Source: Girardia tigrina (lineage: Eukaryota). From it: DNA of 64,000 nt. Under the pieces are notes generated by a model, which was not told where the DNA came from, did no database searches, and was given only the letters and a program-made list of their open reading frames with translations. Numbering within the stretch: the first letter of the stretch is position 1; each line of letters opens with the position of its first letter. Positions 4,006 through 59,470 of the stretch are shown here, piece by piece. Position numbers and translations under genes: made by a program. The stretch lies in NCBI GenBank assembly GCA_001938485.1, contig MQRK01210222.1, positions 1 through 64,000 of the forward strand, read 5' to 3'.

Positions 4006-5290
4006 TTGGGTTGGCGAAAAAGTCAAAAGCGTTTTTGAGTACGTCTTAATAAAAAGCTTGAAAATATAAAACAATGTGATAAAATTTAAATTCAATTATA
4101 TATTCTGAAGCCTTAATTTTCAGACTATGTTTTTAAAAAATATTAATTGATTTTCTTTTAATTTATTACTTTACCGTCAATTCGAAATGGAAAATCAAAA
4201 TGAGCATATTCGTCATGTTTTGTTGCATTATTTTCGCAAAGAGAAAACCGCTGTGCAAGCTCATAAGAAGATATGTTTTGTATATGGTAGTGACTCCTTA
4301 AAACTTCGACAGTGTCAATACTGGTTTTCTAAATTTCGTTCTGAAAAATTTCATCTGAAAGATGCACCACGCTCCGGTCGACCAGTTGAAGCTGATGGCG
4401 ACAAAATAACAGCACTGATGAAATCTAATCCACATATGACGACAAGAGAAGTTGCACAGATTCTGGAAATATCAAAATCAAGTGCTGGAAGTCATTTAAA
4501 GAAACTTGGATTCGTCAGTAAACTCGATATGTGGTTACCACATGAACTGAAAGAAATTCATTTGGTGAAACGTATAGACATTGGTGATTCCCTTTGAAGC
4601 GAGAACAAAGTGATCCGTTTTTGAAGCGCTTGATTACGGGTGACGAAAAATTGATTGTTTACAACAATGTGGAAGGCCGACGATCATGGACAAAACGTGG
4701 TGAGCCTACCAAAACGATCCCAAAAGCAGAAATTCACCAAAAAAAAGGTTATGTTTTCCGTCTGCCTGGATTTTAAAGGAATTGTGTGTTTTTGAACTCC
4801 TTCCGAGAAATGAAACCATCAATTCAGACAGATATTGTGGTCAGCTGGAGAAATTCACTCATTCAATTCAACAGGAACGTTCTGAATTGGCAAATCGAAA
4901 AGGACTTGTAATTCAGCATGATAACACAAGACCACATACAAGTTTGACCACTCGCCAGAAACTCTTATCACTGGGTTGGGAGGTTTTGCCGCACCCACCG
5001 TATTCTCAAGACTTGGCCTCATCGGATTTTCACTTATTTAGATCACTGCAGAATTCCTTAAACAGAAAAACGTTCGCCAGTGATGATGACATCAAATCGT
5101 TCCTAGACGGCGTTTTTGCTGACAAAGGCAAAGGTTTTTAAGAATCAGGAATAATGAAGCTACCGGAAAGGTAGAAGAAAGTGATTGAAAATAAAGGACA
5201 GTATATCGTGTAAAAATATTTGTGCATCCATGTCATTTTTTGATAATAAATATTTTATTAAAAAACGCAATGACTTTTTGGCCAACCCAA
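4006..5290 (+). mobile_element. Full-length mariner (mellifera-like), transposase pseudogene
   Basis: TIRs TTGGGTTGGCGAAAAAGTCA / TGACTTTTTGGCCAACCCAA, TA TSD, 1285 bp; frameshifted ORFs 4187-5141 with WLPHEL, TGDEK, HDN, PYSQDLASSD. Confidence 0.96.
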
Positions 5291-7512: not shown

Positions 7513-8754
7513 AGTAGAGTATCGGTAACGTATTTCCGTATAAACATTATACTTTATTAACATCAATCTCCGAAGAATTAAAAAAATAAAGATCAGTGTC
7601 TTGACTTTTAAATGAGTAAAGAAAGTAGAAAATTTGTTTGAATTTGCTTAAAATAAAAATTATTATGTTGTGCCTTTATGAATTCTCATATTCAAATAAC
7701 TAACTAGGACGAAATGTTATTCATTCATCTGGCAATCTTTTCACATCCAGGGTAATGAAACTTGTTCCACAACGTCCTGATAAGAAATTACAAATTAATT
7801 GTGTCTGTAAAAAAACTAATTGAACTAATTAAAGTTCAATGAGCTCTTTTAACGAAAATAAATAAAAATATAAAAAATAATAAATTTTAAATTAACGGTA
7901 AACACAATTAACTAATTACAATCGTAATCACAATAAATAATGAAAGTAAAATAGGCTGAAACCTCAGGTCGGTTGAGGTGAAGAGGAGAAACAAGAATTG
8001 GTCTAACTGGAATGGATTCTGACAACTGATTATAAAAAAATTGATCTAGTTCGGTTTTATAATGTTTTAGTTTCGGTGTTGAATGTTCTCAGGATACAAG
8101 ATATTTAGTTTAGGGTATTTCTAAACTGGAAAAATTGAGAGTCGGAAACTGATGAACAAAGGATAGGATAATGACATAGGATATTGGATATTTGAGATCG
8201 GATAATATTTCGTAGTTTCTTACTGATTGATCACGAAATTCAATTTTATGGCAAAAAACCCTTTTGAAACTGGTAAAATTGTGTAAATTTAAAAATCCGA
8301 GGAAAAGAAATGCGAATAAAATATTTTTTGTTACAGATTTCATTAATCGCTTTTTTTTAATCTTATAAGTGACAGTTGGTCACTACAGTGTCATATATGG
8401 TTGGAATGAAAAAAGATTCCAAAACTTTTTGTATCCTATTGCGTTAAATATTTTGTCAAAAGAATAAGAAAGAATAGAGCCAATAGCGCGTATTGCGCGC
8501 CACACCTCTTCTACGTACAGAAGGTTATCAATAATAACATTGATGTGGTCAATGCCACCGATCGATCGCATGCTAAAATGCGACAACGCAATATTTGTTC
8601 GTCGATCAATAAATCTTACTATATTTCGGTGGCGTTCATATTTTCGAAGGGTCGCCACCATACCCGCGCGCACCGTGATCCAGACGATGAGGGATCGGGG
8701 ATCGGTCACTCGTGACANATCGGAAGCGGCGCAATTGATCGAGGAAGAGACGAC

Positions 8755-8921
8755 CGATGTCGACGATTTACAGTCGATAAACGTGACAATCGCTCCGAGG
8801 GAGTTGTTGTTCTGATGGATTCGGATTGTTTGGATTTTGCCATGGCTTTGAAACGTTTGTCTAGTGTCGGTTTCTTCGCAATTTTTCGGTAAATTATTAA
8901 TCGTCTCGTTTCTGTCTTCAT
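8755..8921 (-). pseudogene. Spen/SHARP-like N-terminal RRM fragment, frameshifted
   Basis: MKTETRRLII then (shifted frame) NLPKNCEETDTRQTFQSHGKIQTIRIHQNNNSLGAIVTFIDCKSS aligns by eye to SPEN N-terminus MVRETRHLWVGNLPEN...FKRYGRVESVKIL...AAFVDFVDIKSA. Confidence 0.65.
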
Positions 8922-10519
8922 TCAAATCGTCCGATCTTCCTAATTCCAATTCAGTCTCTTCCAAATTCATCGATAATCTCGAAATTAGTCGGAACAGAAA
9001 CACTTCCACAATCGTAAATCAGAGAACAATTTATTCTCTCGTTGTTGTTGACTTGGATTTGCAAATCGATTTAAATCTCTCAGAGAGAATCCGATTTGTG
9101 TTGTAACGAAATAACAACAAACGTGAATAAATTAGAGAATCGTAAAAAGTAAATCAAAATTCGTTTTTCAAAAAGATTTATTATTTACCAAAGCAAGAAT
9201 GATAAGTTTTAAATTGGTGGTTAATGAAATCAGTTGTTTGGTGCGGTAAAACAAATTCTGCTAATTATAATCATCGTCGAAAATATTTCGTTAGATTCTT
9301 AAAATAAAGACCGAATGTTTTTTTTAAAATGCGCATCTGAATTTTTCAGTTTTAAAAATTTCAGGGGTCGCAAATCCAATTAAGAAATTTTTTCAAAATT
9401 AAAAAATTAAATTAAATATCACATTAAAAAAACTCTTAATTGGTTGCTACTGCTGATGCGATTTAATGAACACTACAAACATGATAATACTCTGTGCCCT
9501 AGTGTCGCCAATCTACTTTATTTACGTAACCACACAAATTGAAACATAACCATATATCCCTCTTAGACATAATGTAGAAATAATGAATTCAGCAATTAAA
9601 TGAACCCACTATTTCTACTAAATTAACTAGAATAACTCACCTATTAGGTTAATAGTGATAAAAGGTGAATTATTCTTTATACTTTAAGAATTGTTAAGAT
9701 AATTTAACCAATTCGTTAAATGAACCTAACAACCCAAAGATGAACAAAATGATAAAAATCAACGAACGATTTAAAATTATATTGTTTACCAACAATAACT
9801 GAATGATATTTAACGTAATAATAATAACTAACAGTTACTTCACGGGTAGTAAACGCAATAATCGAGGTTTCAAAAAAAATCAGTCTTTTCTTTTCTTGTT
9901 TATTAGGATAAAAATCGTTCAGTATATTCGTTCAGTAAGAATGACTGTAGACCGCGGACAATATAGCAATATATACGGTGATATTTGGAAGAGTTGGATA
10001 ATCAAATTAATAGCTGGCTGCCAAATTAACGCATAATAAACAGTAACTAATAATTCTGTTTAATAATTTTTTTATCGATCGCAATTTAAACTTTAATTTT
10101 CTATGGCAAATGAAATTTGAATTGCCTTATTTACTTGGAAGACTAAAGACTATTTATTTGGAAGAATAAATTAATTTGCTCTAATTCTTCAACTTTGTTT
10201 TGAAAATTGATTCGTTTTTATTTCGAGATCATTGATGATTTTTTTTTGTAAATTACTTTGATTGAGAATTAGTTTCGCTGACTCATCTTCTTTTTTTTCT
10301 CATTTTGTTTTTCGTACAAAAAATAAAAAGAATGTAAAAATAAAAATTAAATACAAAAAAATCAAAACACAAAGGCTGAATACAATAACCCTAGATATGT
10401 AAAATAAATAAAAATAAATATATAATTACAGAGACCAAAGAATCGATCCCCGCGTTGTACAACATTAGAGGTGGAGAAACATACAAAAGAAAATTCAAAT
10501 GTTCAAAGTAAATAGGTAC

Positions 10520-14705: not shown

Positions 14706-15973
14706 TTGGGTTGTTCGGAAAGTCATTTCGTTTTTTTAATACTTGTTTTGAATGTATTTTTTTATATTAATATTCATTAATAATCATTGACTATATTATT
14801 TATTTTAGCAGTTGGTAATTAAGGTTAGATTTGGAAAATTTTGGAATAATTAAAAACATTTATATTTGATTTTTGACCTATCAAAGATGGAAAGCAAGAA
14901 TCAGCATTTACGGCATGTATTACTTTTTTACTTCCGAAAAGGTAAAAATGCTGTACAAGCAAGAAGAAAATTATGCGAAGTGTATGGAGAAGATGTGTTG
15001 ACAGAACGACAATGCCAAAACTGGTTTAAAAAATTTAGATCCGGAAATTTTGATGTTGAAGATTCTTCACGTTCCGGAAGGCCCATTGAGGCCGACGAAG
15101 ACATAATAAAGGCAATAATTGATTCAAACCGGCGAGTAACAACTCGCAAAATTGCCCAGACATTACATTTATCTAATTAGACCGTCCATGATCATTTGAA
15201 GCGCCAAAGTTTTACATCAACACTCGACACATGAATTCATCATTTTTTTACCGAACGAAATTTATGCTATTGTTTAGACATCTGCGATATGCTTCTCAAA
15301 CGTCAAGAAAATGATCAATTTTTGAAGCGCATCGTCACTGGAGATGAGAAATGGCTAGTCTACAATAATGTAAAACGCAAGAGATCTTGGAGTAAAAAAG
15401 ATCAACCTGCTCAAAGCACTTCGAAAGCTGACATTCATCAAAAAAGAGTGATGCTTTCGGTATGGTAGGATTTCAAAGGAATCGTATTTTATGAGCTTCT
15501 TCCGGACAAAACTAACATCGGTTCAAACATCTACTGTCATCAGCTGGACAAATTAAATGAATCCCTTAAACACAAAAGGCCAGAATTGATCAATAGAAAA
15601 GGTGTAGTGTTTCACCAAGACAATGCCAGACCTCATATAAGTTTGGTAACTCACCAAAAGCTTTTACAGCTTGGATGGAACATGATGCTTCACTCACCAT
15701 AACCTTCTGATTATCATTTGTTCCGGTCTATACAAAATTATTTAGATGGTAACACTTTTGGATAGAATGAAGATGTTAAAAATCATCTGGAAAAGTTTTT
15801 TAGCAACAAAGAACAAATATTTTATGAACGTGAAATCATGTCACTGCCAGGAAGATAGAAGAAGGTATTGGACTACTATTGTCAATATGTATTTTAATAA
15901 AGTATTTATTGGTCATAAAAATTTGTCTTTTACTTTAATACAAAAAAACGAAATGAATTTCCGAACAAACCAA
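14706..15973 (+). mobile_element. Full-length mariner (mellifera-like), pseudogenised
   Basis: TIRs TTGGGTTGTTCGGAAAGTCATTTCG, TA TSD; transposase from 14887 with many stops; TGDEKW, HQDNARPH. Confidence 0.95.
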
Positions 15974-19319: not shown

Positions 19320-21050
19320 TATGGTATTGTTTCGGAATCTTCTTTCTTTTTGACCATAGCCATTAGGTCCTGGGTGCACCTAATTATAAACAAGCATTCA
19401 CCACATCTCTCTATTTGAAGCTTCGTTCCTCAGAAATTCCATACTCAATCCACTCCATTCTTTTTAATCGTCTATCCATTGCCTCTTTGGTCTTTCTCCT
19501 TCCACTCTTCTCTCAATCATAACCTTTGCTAGTGCTTGTTTTCTTATGTGATGTCCGTAGAATTTCAGCTTATTTTTCTTGATGGTCTCTTCTATTGATT
19601 CCGGTTTTTTACCTAGTATTTTTATCACTCTCCTATAGACAAAGTCGTTTGTCTTCTTTTCTTTCCACGTGATTATCATCATTCTCCTGTAGCACTTTAT
19701 TTTAGACGCTTTAAGTCTATTCATGATCTTCTGGTTTATTGTCCAACTCTCGCATCCTTAGAGGAGTGTTGCCCAGACAATAGCCTTATTGATCTTTATT
19801 TTGCTCTTGAGATAGATTTCTTTGAGGTTAAACACTGTGCTAAGTTTAATCATTGTGCTTGTAGCAATATCAATCCGGTTTCTAATTTCTTCTTCGCTTT
19901 CCCCGTTCTCTGTGATAGTAGAGCCTAAGTATTTGAAACTCTTACCTTGTTCCAGCTTCTCTCCTTCAATGTCAATCTCCAGTTTAACCTCGTTGTTATG
20001 GTTTCCTGAAACCATTATTTTGCTTTTTTGTCTGTTGATTTCCATTAAAATTTCTTTGACGCTTGTATAATCTATTCATAAGTTACTGAATTTCTGCCTC
20101 ATCTTAATCGATTAGATCTATGTCGTCAGCAAATTGTAGGTTGGTTATTCTTGTTCCTCCGCAACTTATTCTAACATCGTCTAGATCGTCTATTGCCTCA
20201 ATAACAATTCTCTCATGGAAAAGGTTGAACAGTGTTGGTGAAAGAATACAACCTTGTCTTACTCCTACTCATGATTGAAACCAGTCGCTAAATTGGTAAC
20301 TTATCAACACTTTTGTCTTTGCGTCTTCGTAAAGGCTCTTAATAATTTTCGTAATCCGTTTTCTATGTTGTGTTTATTCATAGTGTACCATAGTGCTTTG
20401 TGCCACACCCTGTCAAAAGTTCTTTTGAAATCTATAAAGTTATGACAAATTATTCTTTTGTGGTTTCTGGTTTTTTCAAAAATCAGTCTTAGGTTGATTA
20501 TCTGCTCCGTAGTGCTGCGGTCCCTTCTGAGGCCTGCCTGCAAATCGCTAAGAACTTGTTCCACTTTCAGTTGTGCTAAAATTACAAAAATGATCTTTGA
20601 TGCGTGACTGATCAAACTAATTGTTCTAAAGTCTCGGCACTTTTTACTATTTGCTTTCTTTGGTATAGGAATGAGGATAGGATTCAGTCCATTGTGAGGG
20701 CCAAACTCCACTACTTAAAATTTTGTTACATATTGCTTGAAGAATGGTCACTGTATTTTTACCTCCATTCTCAATTAGTTCCACGCTGAAGTTATCCATT
20801 CCTCGGTTTTTGTTCCTCTTCAAACCTTTTATGGCAGCCTCTACTTTTGATCTTAAAATTTCGCATTTGTGATTTTCGTCATCTCCCTTTGTTTCCACAT
20901 CTTCAGAGATAACGCTCCTGTTGACATATGCTTTAAATTTGTATAGTTCACTACAGTAATCTTTCCATCTTTGAGCAATCTCTGTACTTTTTGTAAGTAC
21001 GTTTCCATCTTGATATAGACACAAATGGCTTCTTTGAGAATTGCACTGGA
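19320..21050 (-). mobile_element. RTE-clade non-LTR retrotransposon, 5'-truncated and decayed
   Basis: IPIPKK..CRDFRTISLISHASKI, FIDFKRTFDRV, GVRQG, LQFADD, FKYLGS, C-terminal RPKRQWIDD. Confidence 0.92.
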
Positions 21051-21652
21051 CATTGCGGACACTCTGTACATAAGGACTAATGTAAAAATAAAATACTGAA
21101 AGAGAAATATAATAGTTAGTGTTAACTCGAGGTTCAAACATAATAGTTATTTAGCTTTGTACACTTTTCTTTGTGGATTCATTGCATTATATCATTTTAT
21201 GTACAATTTTCATTACATATATTTTATTTTATTTTACTCCCTCCAATCTTAAAAGAAAGATTAACTGTCAAATAATCAAAGAAAAAGAGACGGAAAGAAC
21301 AAGATCGAGACGCTAAAAATCCACCCTCCAGTCAACTATAATAAATACAACAGAAATAATAATAATTAAAAAAGTCCAATAAACGATCAATAAAAAATTG
21401 GGAATTATCGTCTGATAATTATCGCCTTAGCAATATCAAAAAAGAGGAATTTTGGTGTAAACGAAACATTCAGAACCACAATCAAAAGATCGATTCTTTA
21501 GCCTCTCATATCAATTTTAAATAACAAGTATCTGATTATTGCAAATCCCATTTATTTATTTCCTGCTAAAAAAACAGTTATTTGAAAATCCCGTCAAGTT
21601 TCACATATTGTGAATACAACAAACCTTTCTATACCAAACTGTCTATTAAACA

Positions 21653-27713: not shown

Positions 27714-29065
27714 TGAGGGTTTTGCATAAGTTCCCGCCGTTTTTTAAACATTTATTTTCAAAGAAATCAAAGAATTTTAACAACCAAAATAATGACTCAG
27801 TTAATTATATATTTAATGAAATCATAAAATTTTAACAGCAAAAATAATAACACTTCAATCAATTATGTACTCTCCTTCATTGTTCACTAGTTATTCCCAT
27901 CTTTCCACCAGTTTGTTGATTCCATTTTGCCAGAAATCCTTAGGTCGTTTGTCGAAGAAGTTGTTGAGCCAATTCTCAAGATGGTCCTGATTTTCGAAGC
28001 TAATACCCCTCATTTCATTTGAAAGGCAGCGGAAGAGATGGTAATCCGTCGGGGCGAGGTCTGGAGAATATGGAGGATGTTGAAGGACCTCCCAACCGAG
28101 CTCTTGGAGTGCCATCTTGACAGTTTTTACGGTGTGTGGTCGAGCATTGTCATGGAGGAGGATCACCTGGCCTTGTCGATCCGGTCTTTTTTGTTGAATT
28201 GCCTCATTGACTCGATGCAATTGGGCTTTATAGAAATTCTTTTCTACTGTCATGTTCTTTCCAAGCATTTCCCAGTGGATTAGACCTTCCCAATCCCCCC
28301 ATACGCAAATCATTGTCTTCATCGGGTGAAAGTCTTTCTTGATCCTGGGCTTATGCTTCTCTCCAGGACTCACTCATTCTTTCTTTTGCTTCATTTTCAC
28401 ATAGAGACACTATTTCTCGTCTCCAGTGACAATTCTGTATAAGAAACGTTGCCTGTGGCCATGGGTTCCTTGGTGTGGAGCGAGATTTTGAGAAGCAATG
28501 GAAAGCCGCTTATCCTTCTGTTTTTGGGTGAGTTCGTGCGGGACCCAAGCTCCAAGCTTTTGAGTGAAACCCATCGACTGAAAGTGGCGTGAAATTGTCG
28601 CAAAATCGCAATTCATCTTTTCGGTCAATTCTCTGCATGTCTGGCGGCCATCTTCCTTCAAAATATCCCCGAGTTGGTCCTCGTCCATCTCGACTGGTCT
28701 TCCGGAACGAGGAGCGTCGTTGAGGTCGAATTATCGTGTTTGAACCTGGCAAATCAATCCCGAGTAGTTCTCTCAGCTATAGCGTCCTCTTGATACACGG
28801 CACAAATATCTCTGGTTGCTTCACTCGCTTTTTGACCTCGATTAAAGGCGAAAAGAAGGTGTCAAAAATGCGATTTTTTGTCGACTTGACAATCCATTTG
28901 ATGGTTCTAAAAAAGACAAAAAAATAATATAGGCAAAAATGATTACTTTAATCTTGTAGAGCATAGCACGGGCTTTCTAATGGTATATAACACTGCCAAA
29001 CATAAAAAAAGTCTTTCTAGAACAAACAGTTTCATGTAACGGCGGGAACTTATGCAACAACCCAA
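27714..29065 (-). mobile_element. Full-length mariner, pseudogenised
   Basis: TIR TTGGGTTGTTGCATAAGTTCCCGCCGTT, TA TSD; WVPHEL, TGDEK, HDNARPH, YSPDLAPTD. Confidence 0.96.
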
Positions 29066-29616: not shown

Positions 29617-30918
29617 ATGTACCAAAAAAGAAAAGATTACACAGTAAAATATAAAATGGATGTCCTTGAGGAGTCCCGTAACAGAAATTTAACGGAATAT
29701 TGTAAAGAAATGAAATGAAAGGATACCTGAGACTTGTGCGCAAATGGCGAGCAAAGTATGAAACAATTCTTCAGCAGAATTTACTGGGTCTTTATGATAG
29801 AAGAAAAATAGAATCAGAGAAAAAAGTCCGTTTTAATGATTTAGAAATGAATTATTCAATTGGATCTTGTTGAGAATAGAATCAAATTTTGTAGTCCAAA
29901 GATCAGATTTTCAAAAGTTGGCGATTAGTCTCGCAAATGAACATAACATTTCTTCTGATGAATTTAAAGCATCGCAACGTTGTTTAGATCGAATTTTGGA
30001 AACTTATAATCTTAGCATTATACGTTCAACAACATTATTTAAAATTGAAGACTCTGAAATAATTAAGCTTGCTCTTGAGTACATTAAATTTATTGATAAT
30101 ATTAATTTTAATAAATATCAGCTGTCGGAAATCGTTACAATGGATGAAAAGGCCGTTTACCTAGAACGAAATTCTCAAAGCACTATAAATTTAAAAGGTT
30201 CTTCATTCGCTTATATACCGGCCACTGGATATGAAAGTCCACGGGTTACGTGTATATTGGTAATAAGAATGGAATGCTCGAAAGTTGTTTCGTTCATTAT
30301 TATAAGGGAAAAAAGAGAAAATGGAAAAAGTTAATGGTATTTACATCTTGCCTTCACCAAAGACATGGTGTACTCAAGAAGTTATTACAAATGGATTGAT
30401 GTTGTTTTTCCTTTAGTCCTTAGATGTGCCAGAAAAGGCCTCATGGTTTAGGATTCAGCTAGTACTCATAGATCTGCAGCTATGGAGTTTTTAAAAGAGC
30501 ATCAAATCGATCGAATTATGATACCATCTGAAATGACAGCATATTTACAGTCACTTGATTTAGCTATCAACAAGCCATTTAAAGGTTTTTTAAAGGAAGA
30601 AATAAATGATTTTATTGAAAACCGACAGATACGAAACGATAATGGTAATTATGACTAACCAAATATTCAAGAAATATCAGGGTGGGTAAAGAAAGCATGT
30701 GAAAAAATATCACCCATACTGTTAAGAATTTCATACACTCTAGTTATTTATCCTTTGATAAACGATTCGAAGATACTTTTATCGCTAAACACGAAAGATT
30801 AGGTGATCAAGTATTATGAGCATTTAACTTGAATTCGATTGATGACGAGGAAGAAGCTTTAAACGGTTATGAAAACGAATATTCTATGGAAGAAGATAAG
30901 ATTTATGTCAAAGAATAA
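29617..30918 (+). pseudogene. pogo/Tc2 transposase pseudogene (Brinker-like DBD, CENP-B-like HTH, DDE)
   Basis: MYQKRKDYTVKYKMDVL, FKASQRCL, MDEKAVY, TGYE, DSASTH, LQSLDLAINKPFK; stops and frameshifts. Confidence 0.88.
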
Positions 30919-32432: not shown

Positions 32433-32977
32433 TTAGGTTGGTCGAAAAATAATGGCGGTTTTGGGACACAAACTTCAAAGACGTGCAAATTCACAGAAAC
32501 AAAAGTTTATTAATCAAAGTATGAACCGTTGGCATCAATACATTTTTGCCAANGAGAAACAAGTTGTTTTATTCCATCAGCATAAAATGCATCGGTTCTC
32601 GAAGCGACGAATTCTTGGAAGTCATTTTGAGCATCATTTTGGTTTTTGAAAATTTTTTCACGTAGGAAGTTGTATAAATACCTGAAAAAGTAGAAGTCCG
32701 TTGGCGAGAGGTCTGGTGAATATGGTGGATGAAGCAGGGTTTCATAGCCCAACTCATTATGCTTTTGAAGAGTCACTTTTGAAATATGAGGTCTAGCGTT
32801 ATCATGAAGAAGGATGGGACTTTTTCGATTGACCAATCCCGGACAAAAGGTTTTCAATTTTTTATGCATTTCATCAATTTCATGACAGTACCTCTCCTCT
32901 GTGATTGTTTCACCTGGATTCAAGAAACTATAGTGGATGATTCCAGCATCACACCACCAAACTGTCACCATAACCTT
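32433..32977 (-). mobile_element. Cecropia-subfamily (Hsmar1-like) mariner 3' half
   Basis: TIR TTAGGTTGGTCGAAAAATAATGGCGGTT; MVTVWW..IHYSFLNPGETIT..LLHDNARPH..YSPDLSPTD..NGSYFD. Confidence 0.95.
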
Positions 32978-33189
32978 ACGGGGTGTAATGCATACTATCA
33001 GGTCGAACTAGAGGAAGATTTAAAATAATAATAACTATTTTTTCAAAATATCGTGTTTATTTTAAATAAAAAATTGTTTAAATATTGTTGTTTTTTAAAA
33101 AGTAAAACCCAGTCCCGAGAAAAATTATACTATTGAATTTAAACTTAAATTCTAGAAGAACTTTATTCTTCTAATCAATTGATAGTAAC

Positions 33190-36090: not shown

Positions 36091-36540
36091 TGCTGTTTTA
36101 AGAAATTGAATATTGTAGATATTTCGGAACTTCATTTTACATCATCATCAATTAAATAAAATAGAGTTACATTGTTATCTCAAAACTCGCATTAATGAGC
36201 CGTTACAATCAAGTCAATTACTCTATTATTTACTATATTATTTATTTTATCAAAATAAACCGTTGAATTCAAATAATATCGGCAATAATAACAATTGGAA
36301 AAGACGAAGAGAACATTTTCATAAAACCAGTGCATTTACGCCAGTGAACAGTCACCACAAAAACTCGTCCATCAATTCATCGAATTTCAACATCTATAAT
36401 TCGACAAGACGACAAGCGACCGTTTTGCCGAGAATCACACAATAATGATTTATTTTTACTAAATAAATCATTATTTTTAAAATTTACTGCACAATATTTT
36501 AAAATTAGTTGTTTAAAATATTGTGCAGTAATTTTAAAAA

Positions 36541-36730
36541 TTATTGGGAAAGAGTTACTTGTGAGGTATTGATTAAATCACTTAATCCGTCCATTAATGT
36601 ACAAACAAGTCTCTCTTCCAATTTGTTGAAAATATTTAATAAGGTATTACGCAAGATGTTTGCATAATCATCAATTTGCTCTATATAAGACAGCGAAATT
36701 GTTGTTAATTCAGCCTGAAGATGGTGAAAA
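36541..36730 (-). mobile_element. Possible retrotransposon gag-like remnant
   Basis: EQIDDYANILRNTL...TLMDGL resembles gag MHR-region pattern. Confidence 0.3.
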
Positions 36731-36924
36731 ATCCACCGAAATATATTGTGACAATAAAATTTGATTTTAATGGCGTTCTTAAAAATAAATAATAGCATCT
36801 ATGATTTATTTTAAAATTAACTAAACACTCGAAGAAGAACAGTGAGCTCCTTAGAGGTCATAACTTAATGTAAATATACTAAACATTTCATCATACAATA
36901 ATAAAAATAATGTTATACTAAAAT

Positions 36925-36956
<32 letters not shown>

Positions 36957-47437: not shown

Positions 47438-48940
47438 CCGTATTTCTTCTAATACAGCAACAATGCTTAATTAGAGCGACATGATGACAACCATTCGAAA
47501 CAATAGACCGACATTGATTATTTAGAGCGACATGTCGCTTTATTAGACAGGTCTGGTGACAACCATTTAAAAAATAAATCCTCATCCAAATCAAAATTTG
47601 TCTCTATCACAAACCACACTCGGTGGAAGGCGGGATAGTTATCCAATTTACAGTATCTTATATTTACTATGAAGTGAGGTAGTGCAGCAGCACGACTGTC
47701 ATGCGTGAGTAATAAAGTTTAGGTTTATACGTAACACATAGCCCGACACCTACCATAATCTCACTTTATACATATAAAGATTGGTGTTTTGAAGCTAAAA
47801 GCATGTACATTTCACTTTCTGGTATGACAGATTGTTGTGCTTTACAACATGGACATAGTCAACATTGCAGATAAAGATGAATGCCATAAATCTGAGGCAA
47901 ATCTCACTTCGAACAATCGTCGTAAAAGGACTATATATACACTTGAATTCAAGTAAAGTGTAATAGAGAATGCCAAGAAGACTTATAAAAGCTCATAAAT
48001 TTCAAATTTTCTCATAACTAGGCTGGAAAATCGTGGATTAATCACAACTTCAGAGAAGATTATCTCTGACGTGTAATCTTTTCCAAAAGCTACTTCTGGT
48101 ATGGGACACTTTTCGATGCTATAGCAGTGTGAATACAAAAGACGTGCTTTGTTCCCTGAAGCTGTATGTCGCAGTTTTTCCTGTAGACTGTACCACATTT
48201 ATTCAGTCGGCAGACGTGTCATGGAATAAACCTTTCAAGAACAAAATTTCTGAATTAAACACTCCCTGGATTAAAAAAACCGTCCACTGACATGTACTGA
48301 AAAGAACATTGCACCACATCACCGGATATATATCTCGAATGAATTATGCTGGGATGGAAGTTGGTTTCATCAGAAAATATCAAAAAAGTCATTTATTGAA
48401 TGCGTGATTAACCATTGCTTGCAATGGATCCCACGATGCCGACGTATATGTATTCAAACCCGGTGGTTCTATATCTTCTGATTTGATGGAGCTTCATAAA
48501 AAAGAAGATTGAACATGAAAATTGAATCATTGCTAGCAACGCTGGAATTTTATGATGAATCTTTGTATGATTCAAATCAAGATAGTGTGAGTCAATATGA
48601 CTCAGACTCCGACTGATGCTTGGCGGCATACTCTTATTTTATTTGTTGAAAATATAATTTTATAGATTTTGCGGCTTTTGTATTTCTACTCTATAAAGAA
48701 AACCACAAGCAGTGATTGTTTTCACGAGCAGTAAACACGTCTAATTTAATTTACCACGTTCTCACGACTTACTTTCCTACTTATTTTACCGGATTCTCAT
48801 GATCAATTTTAAGTGACTCAAAACTTGCTCTAATAGACTAATAATATTTAAAAAATTAGAGCGAAAGTGCTTAATTAGAATGATGTGACCACCATACAAA
48901 ACAAAAGACCGACGGTGTCGCACTATTAGGATAAATACGG
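47438..48940 (+). mobile_element. Tc2/pogo-like element, internally deleted
   Basis: TIRs CCGTATTT(C/A)T(T/C)CTAATA, TA TSD, subterminal TTAGAGCGAC repeats; FIQSADVSWNKPFK motif. Confidence 0.85.
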
Positions 48941-50182
48941 TATTTATTTATTTTTTGAAAATCAGAGAAAAAGATTGATTAAATTTTATTATATTAAATA
49001 TAGCAAATGAGGATGTAAAAATAAGAAAAATATTAACTAAAAAGATTAATTTTTGGTATTTTTTTCTGAATAAAAATCCAAAAAGAATTCGTGACCAACT
49101 GATTAGAAAAAACGATTTCAAGATTTACCAAAGATGCAAATCCAAAAATGAAAATGTATAAATCAAATGATGTTGGTTTTTAGAAATCCGATTAATAAGC
49201 ATTAAATTCGGTCAATGTTGGCTGGAGAATTAATTTTTTTATGAAAATTATTAATAAATTCATTTATAAACTGAATCTCTGAATACAATTATTGTAAATA
49301 ATTGTATAATTCATATAAAATAATTAACTAAATAATTTATCATATTTTTGATGAGAAAAATAAGAATGTATTTATTATCTAGTAAATTTTTTAAAAATAA
49401 AAATCTTTTAAATTGTAAATTAATTTTAATTATTATTTTTTTAAATAATAAAATAAAAAAATCTTTTAAAACAAATAAAGAAATTAAAAAAAATTGTCTA
49501 ATTAAAGTTAATTTTTTTTATTTTTCTTAGATTCAGATTTTCAATTGTTGTCGAATCTTGATAAAACTTTCTATTTATATAAAATTATTATTCATGAAAA
49601 AATTATTTAATTTAATTTAATTTAATTTAATTAAAAAATATAAAATATTTTGATTATGAAAATTTGGTCATTTAATTAGACATTTTATGTATCTTAAAAT
49701 TCGAAATTCGAGAAGAAAATAATTTTTCAGTAATAATTTGCTGAGGAAAATCGAATATATTTTCCCCTTAATAAATCTTGTTAAATCGAAATTGATATTT
49801 TTAACTACATAAAAAATAATTAAAACCTTTAAAATCTTAACATTTTCGTCTTAAAGAAAAGCCTTACTTCATTTAAATTTACCAAACAGAATTTTAAAAT
49901 GAGTTTTTCATGGCTTTTAAATACAAAAAAGGTATAAACTTTTTGCAAAAACAAATATTATGATATAAAAAGTGAAAAATAATTTAAATATAATAAAACA
50001 AACTTTACAGATTTTTACACATTATTTTCAAATGGTAAAATTAAATTAAGAAAATATTTCTTTGTATCAAACATATATTCTTAGAAAACGTTTCAAAAAT
50101 GACTTGTACCAAAATAAAAAATAGTGATAAAAATAAGGATACATAATCTTTTGTACAATTTTAATTGTCATGGGTGTCAAAA

Positions 50183-50229
<47 letters not shown>

Positions 50230-50306
50230 NNNNNNNNNNNNNNNNNNNNNNNNNNNNNNNNNNNNNNNNNNNNNNNNNNTTTGATTAAAGCTTTTTTTAT
50301 ATAATT

Positions 50307-50348
50307 ATTGGACATGTTTCGATGTTTACATACATCATCATCAGCAAT
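50307..50348 (-). ncRNA. Minimal type I hammerhead ribozyme (Penelope-type)
   Basis: AUUG CUGAUGA U GAUGU augUAA ACAUC GAAA CAUG UC CAAU: intact core, 4-bp stem I, 5-bp stem II, palindromic ACAUGU stem III. Confidence 0.8.
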
Positions 50349-50479
50349 TTTCGGATGTTTAGTAAATGAAAATTGAATTGTTTGAATAATACAATTTTAA
50401 TACAATTTTAATAAATATAATTTACTTTAAAAGGTGACGAAGAAATTAAACATTATCATATTACAATATTACAATATTT

Positions 50480-50680
50480 AACTTACAAGGCTAGCTTATA
50501 TACTGGATGTGAAGGCTTAAGAGCTTATCAACTATGCTCAAGTTTCAGAAAAGCTGTTTACTCACTTTTGATGGTAAGGCAACTTTCACTGATTTTTGAT
50601 GAATCAAGTAGGTTTCACATTGAAATGATGAATCTTGGAATCAGGAAGAGCAGTATTTTGATGAACTCCATTAATTTAAA
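50480..50680 (-). mobile_element. Possible Penelope GIY-YIG C-terminal remnant upstream of the ribozyme
   Basis: KIL...ETYLIHQK resembles the GIY-YIG C-terminal ExxxI helix; position relative to the HHR fits. Confidence 0.35.
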
Positions 50681-50690
50681 TCATTTAGAT

Positions 50691-50800
50691 CAGTGTAGCT
50701 TAAACTGTGGGTCGCGACCTCGAATGGGGTAGCAGCGCCTAATTTCCGGGTTGCGAAGATTTAATTTTTATTGCAACTTTTAATTTGTATTTTAAATATT
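50691..50800 (+). mobile_element. hAT-Charlie-like terminal fragment
   Basis: CAGTG..CTTAAACTGTGGGTCGCGACC...GGGTTGCGA. Confidence 0.5.
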
Positions 50801-50805
50801 CATAT

Positions 50806-51271
50806 TGTTAACAGAACTCACACATTTGACAGAACATTTATTACATTCACAATTTTTATTATCTTTATGATGATCAACAGTAATGCTTTCACTTAGATCC
50901 ATCAATCAATTTTCAATATCTCCCATTATAATCTTAACTATACTTGATAAGATTATTTTATTTAAAAATATTTAATTTAAATTTGATTGGCTGAAATAAA
51001 ATATTTTTATAGTTATTTTTAAACATTAATTTGATTTTAATTATTTAAAAATTTACAAAAATAAAATCATTAAAATTATTTAAAAGCTGCAATAATAAAA
51101 ACAAAAAATTTGAATATTAAATCTAAATTTAAATAAATTAGTTTCAGATTATAAAAAATTAAATATTGATAATCCATCTGGTTAGGAGAGGCACAATCCC
51201 AAATCAACATACAACATTTGAACATTCAAAAACTACACACAAAAACATACACACACCAAATATTCCTCACA
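50806..51271 (-). mobile_element. Solo LTR-like repeat (TG...CA)
   Basis: Highly similar to 62595-63052; no TSD. Confidence 0.75.
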
Positions 51272-53463
51272 TCCCCCTCGTTTTAAATGGCTTTAGCCAT
51301 TCCACATTTCTGATCAAAATTCTACCATCTTCTAGCTCCAATTCATAACTTCTTTCATGTCTTCTGCTTTTTATTGTGGTTGGACCCATATATCGGTCTT
51401 CTTCCTTTGTGTGGTAAGAAAAATAAAATACTTTGTCTTATTGGCTAAAATCAGAGCGAGTAACTAACTCGATCAAAATTACTTCAATTAAAAATATAAT
51501 GAATTTTTTTATCAATCGAGCGTTATTGTCTCGCAGGTTTTATGCATTTTCATTTTATCAAATGGATTTTAAAGAGATTCTGAAAATATTTGATTTTGCT
51601 CGATTTGGAAATCAACAACAAATCCTCGATTAGAGATTTTTGAAAAAAATAACTTTAAATGTTCATGGATGTATGCGAACTTTTTCATTTCGTTGAATTT
51701 TTAAAAATGAACTGAAATATGATTTATTTTGTTTGCTCGATTAAAAATTGCCACAGATATTTTTTGAATTTTTCATGTTGGTCATTTTCACGATATTTTT
51801 TAATGATTTGCTTAATTTCATTATGCTCAATATTCGAATATTATTTTATGATATGAATTTTGTGTCGGCTCTAGTGGTTAAATTTGAAAAAAAAGTATTA
51901 TATTTCTCTTTTAAGAGAATTGTGATTTCAATTTGTTATTTTATTGTAATATTTTTATCAATTTGTCAATATTAAAAATAAAAATGTATTTACTGATAAT
52001 GAATATATTTTCACTGATAATAATAACAACTATTTGAATTCTCTGATTAAAATAATCAACAAATGGATGACAGAGAATTTCAATGAAACTCTTTTAACAT
52101 TGTTTATTAATTTAAATTGTGTATTAATTTACTTTCCAACGATTCTATATTAAATTATAAATCATCTTTCGGGAATTTCATGATGTTATTAAACTCGACG
52201 AAAGTTACCACTCATTATTGTTTTTTCAACAGTCATTAATTTATTTTAAAATATGAGCCAAGCACAATTAGACTAAGCATTCAGATAATCTACTGCGAGC
52301 GTCAACTACAACCGTCCGATTTTTAGGGCAGCCTGAGGGTCGCGCGAAAAGATAAAGTTCATCAATTTTACAATTTTCCCATTCTTTATTTCTGTTTTTA
52401 GATCTATTTTCTTGAAATGAGATAGAAGAAAAATTAATGTACAAGAAAACTAATAATAATAATAGATAATAAAAGTATCGAAGAAAAAAAGTATAAACAT
52501 AGAGGTATTAATAGTTCAGTTTTATTAATATAATATAAAAGACTATTTAAACGCATAACCGAATGAGCCTTTAACCAACAATAATGACAGAGTATTCTTT
52601 TGTTTTATTTCTTTTTATTATCTGTTGACTAAATAATGAATACATGATAAATATTCTTTTTTACTTTATATTGTTATTTTTGTTTACTGAGCATATTTGT
52701 AAATGTCTTCTACAAATATTTTTTTCTTAAAATCTATTATTTATTTCATATGAAAAAATATTTTATTATACTCTGCCTTATAAAAATAAATAATTGTATT
52801 ATAAACATACTTCTTATTTATAATATTTTTTTACTATAACATACTAGATACAAAATTATTGAAAATAATGTTTCGATTTAATAATTATAAAATATATACA
52901 TTAATAACAAAAAATAACATTTATTTTAGATTAAATGAAACATTAGTTCTATATTCTATGAAAAGTTATTTATTTTTAGTTAGTTTCGTAGAAATTTACT
53001 GTCAACTTTAAATTTTTAAAAGGAAACGTTATGACTTGTTATATCATTTGACACAATAAAATGAAAAGTTAGTTCGAGAATCAACTAAATAATTTAGTTA
53101 CTTTATGAGGGTTACTTAATTAGATACTTATTTTAGTTACTTACTTAAGAAGCACGATACCTTGGAACGAGTTTTAACACCCGTGACAATTAAATTTATA
53201 AACCAGATTAGTTTCCAATCTTCAAATCGTTTTAGATTTATTTGAGAGGAATCTTTAAAGTTTAGAATGATACATATTCTTTCAAATTATCTTCTTAAAT
53301 ACTCAAAACCCTCCAGAATAATGTATCTTAATGATATTTAATGTTATTTTATCCGTGCGCTGGTGCTCATCTACAAATAATTAATTTTAATTAATTATAC
53401 AGCTAAAATATTTTATTTTTGCAGCTGTTCATACGCGTACATCAAGTTTCTACTCTTGATTAA

Positions 53464-59164: not shown

Positions 59165-59470
59165 AAAATAAGTTGAAAATATGTTTTGTAATAAATCACC
59201 TACTCCGTTGAGCTTGTGTTCAGACTTTGTTAATCAGTATACGTATAATGGTTGCAATGCCACATACATTAGAGAGACTGTCCGTCGTCTATACAAACCA
59301 TATAAAAACAGGTGATCCAAAGAAACTAATGAATCAACTATTTTTATTTACAATAAAGAACGAACAATATCTGATTAACCTAATCCAACGGATACGTCTT
59401 AGTTGGATTAAATTAATTATCTATCAACAACCAAAAATAAATAGGAATCAGCAAATAAAAAAATATAATA
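59165..59470 (+). mobile_element. Penelope-like GIY-YIG endonuclease fragment
   Basis: FCNKSPTPLSLCSDFVNQYTYNGCNATYIRETVRRLYK ... YQQPKINRNQ (YIGET motif mutated). Confidence 0.75.

Follow-up and report, generated by a model that had tools for sequence, protein, structure and literature searches.

The window analysed here comprises 64,000 nucleotides of a Girardia tigrina contig (MQRK01210222.1, assembly GCA_001938485.1) and carries, on the minus strand, a minimal type I hammerhead motif close to a (TA)n tract. The coordinates of the motif and of its surroundings are collected in Table 1. The motif fits the core CUGANGA...GAAA...UH in type I topology as well as the features listed for the minimal hammerheads of Penelope-like elements (PLEs), namely an extra nucleotide separating position 9 from position 10.1 and a G10.1-C11.1 pair (PMC4209133). 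Its stem III with loop 3 is palindromic, and other families carry other palindromes. A strict descriptor gave one match in the window and none in 150 Markov-1 windows. Hence, the motif is not a chance occurrence; it is real and correctly placed, and both the letters of the hammerhead and the cleavage site predicted in the first-pass annotation were borne out letter for letter. An Rfam scan of 48000–53000 returned no hammerhead match at E ≤ 10, and the minimum free energy (MFE) fold of the motif is unremarkable (z of -0.7 to -1.1 for two short folds).

Table 1. Coordinates of the hammerhead and its surroundings in the 64,000-nt window.
Feature	Position	Strand	Evidence or remark
Minimal type I hammerhead	50307..50348	-	sequence, chance test, genome count, covariation across 10 hammerheads of several families
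Stem I, 4 bp	50348-50345 / 50310-50307	-	
Core CUGAUGA	50344-50338	-	
Extra U (between 9 and 10.1)	50337	-	
Stem II, 5 bp, with 6-nt loop	50336-50332 / 50325-50321	-	G10.1-C11.1 = G 50336 / C 50321
GAAA	50320-50317	-	
Stem III palindrome ACAUGU	50317-50312	-	
C17	50311	-	predicted cut between 50311 and 50310
AUG within stem III palindrome	50313..50315	-	first in-frame AUG of the RT-EN ORF in full-length siblings
5'-truncated 3' end (pseudo-LTR piece and tail), Penelope/Poseidon-type family A	50280..50471	-	siblings 94-98% identical, behind GIY-YIG and RT
Tail 3' of the cut = first ORF codons; 12 codons, counted from the AUG, can be read up to the gap	50280..50310	-	sibling comparison
50-N assembly gap over the true 3' junction	50230..50279	.	
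(TA)22 tract, likely insertion target	50185..50229	.	inferred from siblings
Unrelated older low-copy repeat adjoining the 5' truncation point	50471..50685	+	

A genome search with 50281–50700 as the query yielded 1605 candidates, and the 40 best-scored ones match only query positions 230–420 (~190 nt), at 94–98% identity. The similarity of the window copy to this family, referred to as family A, ends at about 50460–50471. The adjoining 50471–50685 matches 12 other places in the genome at 66–78% identity, with neither a tblastn match to 120 related proteins with reverse transcriptase (RT) and endonuclease (EN) nor a match to family A DNA. It was therefore rejected as a decayed ORF of the family A element. 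This stretch is an older repeat unrelated to the element, and the truncation of the window copy therefore falls inside the pseudo-LTR. The first-pass annotation had described the upstream coding sequence as badly decayed and had set the intact core against it. This contrast does not stand: upstream there is no ORF of the element, and the 191-nt piece is young throughout, at 94–98% identity to its siblings. Its youth accounts for the intact core, and its 47-nt hammerhead region is the commonest form, shared with 31 of 85 other copies. The same annotation had the fragment ending at a (TA)n tract, which is not visible in the window because 50 Ns separate the tract from the copy, although TA runs do adjoin 46 of 54 sibling ends. 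The lone fragment is likely inert where it sits, with no partner, promoter context or ORF. From the other side, the (TA)n tract is met by a 40-nt scrap of PLE endonuclease (50145–50184, plus strand; 13 codons, 85% identical to P0001), just where the YIG motif would come next. More such endonuclease scraps, with no hammerhead detected, lie at 53159–53349 (minus strand) and 59172–59291 (plus strand).

The genome-wide search for copies that had been proposed on first reading gave a clear answer: the family A-type hammerhead pattern has 5,939 exact matches in the genome and the reversed control pattern has none. Other hammerhead families in the genome account for 6,979 matches against 7 for the control. 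In total, the genome holds at least 12,900 such motifs, with about 6,000 family A ends. Upstream of the shared piece, the siblings carry the C-terminus of a GIY-YIG endonuclease, with the RT further up. RT and endonuclease are joined in one frame in L071, L075 and L077, and this coding part is absent from the window copy itself. An RT search of the genome produced 25,263 candidates, of which 150 scored matches show 85–100% identity. PF00078 (RVT_1) was matched above its cut-off for L080, and the homolog P0005 has both RVT_1 and GIY-YIG. The family A protein has DKG and YVDD motifs and a CCHH-type GIY-YIG domain, with no CX2-5CxxC linker zinc finger in the stretches inspected.

One locus, L070, displays the whole layout: a (TA)n tract, a hammerhead, the ORF, a gap, a second hammerhead on the same strand, the tail and another (TA)n tract. 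Inverted 5' pieces occur in L011, L015 and L047. Pseudo-LTRs and the optional 30–40-bp tail, both characteristic of Penelope/Poseidon, were found in the L070 layout and in tails ending at +48–52 and about +80. With the CCHH endonuclease and the lack of a linker zinc finger, family A looks like Penelope/Poseidon by the criteria given in PMC8557442, a clade label that rests on motifs rather than on a tree with reference elements. The features of family A match those of the minimal hammerheads in the pseudo-LTRs of metazoan PLEs (Cervera and De la Pena 2014, PMC4209133). In the schistosome examples of that study helix II has 7–8 bp, whereas it has 5 bp in family A. With high confidence, the window motif can thus be assigned to a Penelope/Poseidon-type retroelement of high copy number, in whose pseudo-LTR it lies; what the window contains of this element is a single young end fragment, 5'-truncated. 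The early suggestion of a Penelope terminal repeat therefore stands, with siblings lying directly behind the GIY-YIG C-terminus and the RT and with the full layout of L070. The motif is an ordinary member of an already described hammerhead class. A second minimal hammerhead, from another PLE family, lies in the window at 36715–36747 (plus strand), with the palindrome ATATAT and a stem I of only about 2 bp. A GIY-YIG C-terminus (36512–36640) precedes it and a (TA)15 tract follows at 36927.

Next to their target, the copies end at discrete places. After five ends at gaps or contig ends had been dropped, 54 sibling 3' ends were informative, and 46 of these fall into clusters at +42 (4 ends), +48–52 (18) and about +80 (24), counted from the AUG. 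A TA run was present at the junction in 46 of the 54, compared with a background of 3.8%. The same TA loose ends were seen in contigs of four public runs, for which only contigs were used and the RNA status is a guess. A strong association with (TA)n has been reported for the Hydra, Neptune and Naiad clades of PLEs (Craig et al. 2021, PMC8557442), as found here for family A. That paper describes no linker for Penelope/Poseidon; family A has the CCHH endonuclease without a linker, yet 46 of 54 ends lie on TA runs. Its strong (TA)n bias in the absence of a linker zinc finger makes family A a small counter-example to the connection that has been proposed between these features.

The copies retain the sequence to either side of the cut, so their templates had either not been cut at that hammerhead or been re-ligated there. 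Cleaved RNA as the template was rejected on the 3' side, where, genome-wide, a single match stops at the cut next to a TA run. On the 5' side, 70 places fetched of 146 matches contained 13 true boundaries at the cut, compared with 0–5 at each of eight upstream positions and 8 at the ninth. Four of the 13 are otherwise explicable (three look like C17 changes and one is a stem-I inversion). In the downstream control, 209 matches were obtained, and 22 of the 29 inspected were true boundaries. By our estimates, this corresponds genome-wide to roughly 16–19 truncations per position in the control and roughly 20–29 at the cut. The apparent excess at the cut is gone against the next 11 downstream positions, and cleaved RNA was rejected as the template on this side as well: since the downstream control is about as frequent, there is no specific cut-site peak of 5' truncations. 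Neither the 3' nor the 5' insertion ends thus carry a genomic footprint of cleavage. In L231, an inverted junction falls exactly on the stem I complementarity, which suggests a template switch guided by stem I of the ribozyme.

The conservation of the hammerhead depends on how the copies were sampled. The first-pass annotation had looked to the core being better kept than its flanks, which stands for 16 copies picked by RT, where the hammerhead differs at 16 of 701 sites and the upstream pseudo-LTR at 83 of 1122, and does not stand for 29 copies picked by overall similarity (15 of 1276 against 56 of 2973 in the flank, p = 0.12, not significant); in both counts the copies are non-independent, and the motif overlaps coding sequence in part. 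Recurrent variants are found in none of 14 core columns and in 18 of 103 flank columns. Stem covariation, also raised on first reading, was detected over 10 hammerheads of several families, in which 8 of 10 stem pairs change on both sides. In the same set, 78% of stem cells are paired, compared with 62% after shuffling and 27–46% after sliding, with the structure drawn from the window copy, which favours that structure. Within family A, stem II changes from G-C to U-A in 36 of the first 100 matches listed (counted by hand). These form a subfamily, and the swap is one inherited event. Families that differ in their stems, and elements of different hosts, retain the catalytic core. Taken together, conservation and covariation support selection in the master elements and not in the window copy.

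The palindrome of stem III contains an AUG, and its place in the element was followed in 30 loci picked with a 5' junction, of which 26 have the AUG context intact. In 23 of these 26 junction copies, no in-frame Met occurs between the previous stop and the AUG, and in 17 the reading frame runs for at least 70 aa from the stem III AUG. The distance from the Met to the conserved FLxxC motif is 55 aa in family A, compared with 46–63 aa in 19 of 23 long homologs. The lack of an earlier in-frame Met, the open frame and the FLxxC distance together indicate that the family A ORF very likely begins at the AUG in the stem III palindrome, 5 nt ahead of the predicted cut. The AUGs of the CUGAUGAUGAUG run are not in this frame and begin a short overlapping one.

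The same layout was found in two intact metagenome elements, L306:4-2605 and L310:258-2937. Their ORFs, of 821 and 826 aa, respectively, begin at the stem III AUG and each lie between two hammerheads with different stem II sequences, and the RT-EN identity to family A is only 34% for L306 and 32% for L310. Family D of the present genome (L179 and L190, both minus strand) opens its ORF elsewhere, at the AUG formed by A9-U-G10.1, 27 nt before the cut, and the frame runs from there to the conserved N-terminal motif. Most listed hammerheads of the genome have U as their extra nucleotide, which makes an AUG at A9-U-G10.1 nearly general there. In family B, the frame of the stem II AUG is open through the tail, with no 5' junction copy among 20 fetched regions.

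A hammerhead was detected upstream of the RT match in five of 80 metagenome loci; two of these start in stem III and three downstream of the cut. A start codon inside the ribozyme was therefore rejected as a universal feature, and so was stem III as the universal start site, because family D and the Anolis element described below start at stem II. A second-residue test for stem III starts in the homologs gave S, F, L or Y in 12 of 20 cases against a background of 0.46 (p = 0.15, not significant). The stem III start is a recurrent layout but not a universal one.

Among the closest described systems is the Poseidon element of Anolis carolinensis, PAc (Frangieh et al. 2024, PMC11167929), which, like family A, combines a GIY-YIG endonuclease at the C-terminus with AT-rich targets. 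In both, the ORF start is overlapped by the hammerhead, whose cut lies downstream of the AUG, and the tails end at discrete sites inside the ORF; the family A ends match the tails that arise in PAc through internal initiation by the RT. The two elements differ in detail: in PAc the ORF opens where stem II begins, 26 nt before the cut, whereas that of family A begins inside stem III, 5 nt before it; the PAc RT starts near +111–118, whereas the family A tails end at +42, +48–52 and about +80 on TA runs. Family D has the PAc layout, with 27 nt from start to cut compared with 26 nt. As the PAc ORF start overlaps its hammerhead, a start codon overlapping a hammerhead is already in print. The main text of PMC4209133 has no mention of a start codon in the motif. 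The placement in stem III was found neither there nor in the literature consulted, and the supplements of that paper or Lunse et al. 2017 may show it.

These data can be arranged into a putative mechanism. Reverse transcription of the element RNA would begin internally, about 42, 50 or 80 nt into the ORF, and would be primed at a nicked (TA)n tract. For the window copy, synthesis would have stopped after about 230–270 nt, on a template presumably uncut or re-ligated at its hammerhead. Judging from PMC4209133, PMC11167929 and a closed form at +3.2 kcal/mol, compared with a predicted minimum of -6.4 kcal/mol, the monomer is probably unable to form stem III. In a full-length or tandem transcript, two hammerheads may instead pair their ACAUGU palindromes, probably helped by the protein of the element. 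The active dimer fold, with a shared 6-bp ACAUGU duplex, has a predicted energy of -10.2 kcal/mol, compared with -15.4 kcal/mol for the misfolded dimer. Cleavage in the dimer would fit both the literature and the anatomy of the element.

Cleavage 5 nt into the ORF is predicted to leave the cap and the start codon on one fragment and the coding body on the other, an arrangement suggestive of a translational off-switch. We therefore put forward, tentatively and as a model that is itself unlikely, that the hammerhead may serve as a translation switch in many Penelope/Poseidon elements: protein-assisted cleavage would cut the AUG off the ORF and silence the mRNA, and re-ligation or circularisation would restore it. 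The role of PLE hammerheads has been called unclear (PMC8557442), and hammerhead-dependent translation initiation has been reported in RNA viruses, although the reported cut lies upstream of the AUG there (PMC13725137). If the switch is true, the family A palindrome would have two jobs, as a pairing code and as an initiation site, and this dual use would hold in elements that are only a third identical in protein. The window locus alone matters little here, as one of about 6,000 family A ends. The start 5 nt before the cut in family A and the intact L306 and L310 would provide a clean system for asking whether cleavage controls translation rather than insertion.

The motif may also be kept as a protein-binding or translation-start structure, with cleavage negligible or irrelevant in vivo, a possibility of some weight that we nevertheless consider rather doubtful. 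It is compatible with the Penelope/Poseidon identity and differs on function only. In the Anolis element, mutating the hammerhead left insertion in vitro unaffected, and RNA-seq revealed no ends at the cut (PMC11167929), in line with the lack of a cut-site peak among insertion ends in the present genome and with an active fold that is not the MFE fold. However, the Anolis ribozyme does cleave in the presence of the protein (PMC11167929), and the conservation noted above, with no recurrent core variant and a catalytic core kept across families and hosts, argues against a structure in which cleavage is irrelevant.

A reading of the fragment as the monomer of a retrozyme (non-autonomous and non-LTR) or of a SINE-like derivative, moving via a small circular RNA, is highly improbable. 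The hammerhead-plus-tail is far deeper than the 5' body of the ORF in the four public contig sets (e.g., about 58,000–67,000 compared with about 350 in X13), and a 2026 preprint (10.64898/2026.07.22.740005) argues that retrozymes derive from PLE pseudo-LTRs. Animal non-LTR retrozymes (PMC7229834) also share with the window motif a type I hammerhead, a weak palindromic helix III and AT-richness. However, they are described with canonical hammerheads in tandem units of 150–450 bp, whereas the window shows no tandem array, and the 50-N gap, provided that its size is correct, leaves no room for another unit. Moreover, the siblings bear the PLE tail and reach variable lengths into EN and RT, like 5'-truncated copies. 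The description as retrozyme-like in the first-pass annotation thus has to be given up in favour of a single piece of an autonomous element. The idea that the host has co-opted the window copy as an active ribozyme in one of its transcripts is, despite the intact core and stems, extremely improbable, given that the copy is young and identical to the commonest family form, that no partner of the same family lies within the window and that such minimal hammerheads failed to cleave in monomeric form (PMC4209133).

Beyond the PLE pieces, the window contains further remnants of mobile elements. Fragments of mariner/Tc1-like transposases occur at 1012–2375, 4151–5141, 14854–15180, 27891–28730 and 32510–33007, the first with a Transposase_1 match at 1012–1758. 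An RT fragment of the LINE type lies near 19758–21150, and a Tc5-like piece with a weak HTH_Tnp_Tc5 match spans 29840–30334. An open frame with an RRM_1 match at 8383–9018 (minus strand) is possibly an exon of a host gene or a retrocopy.
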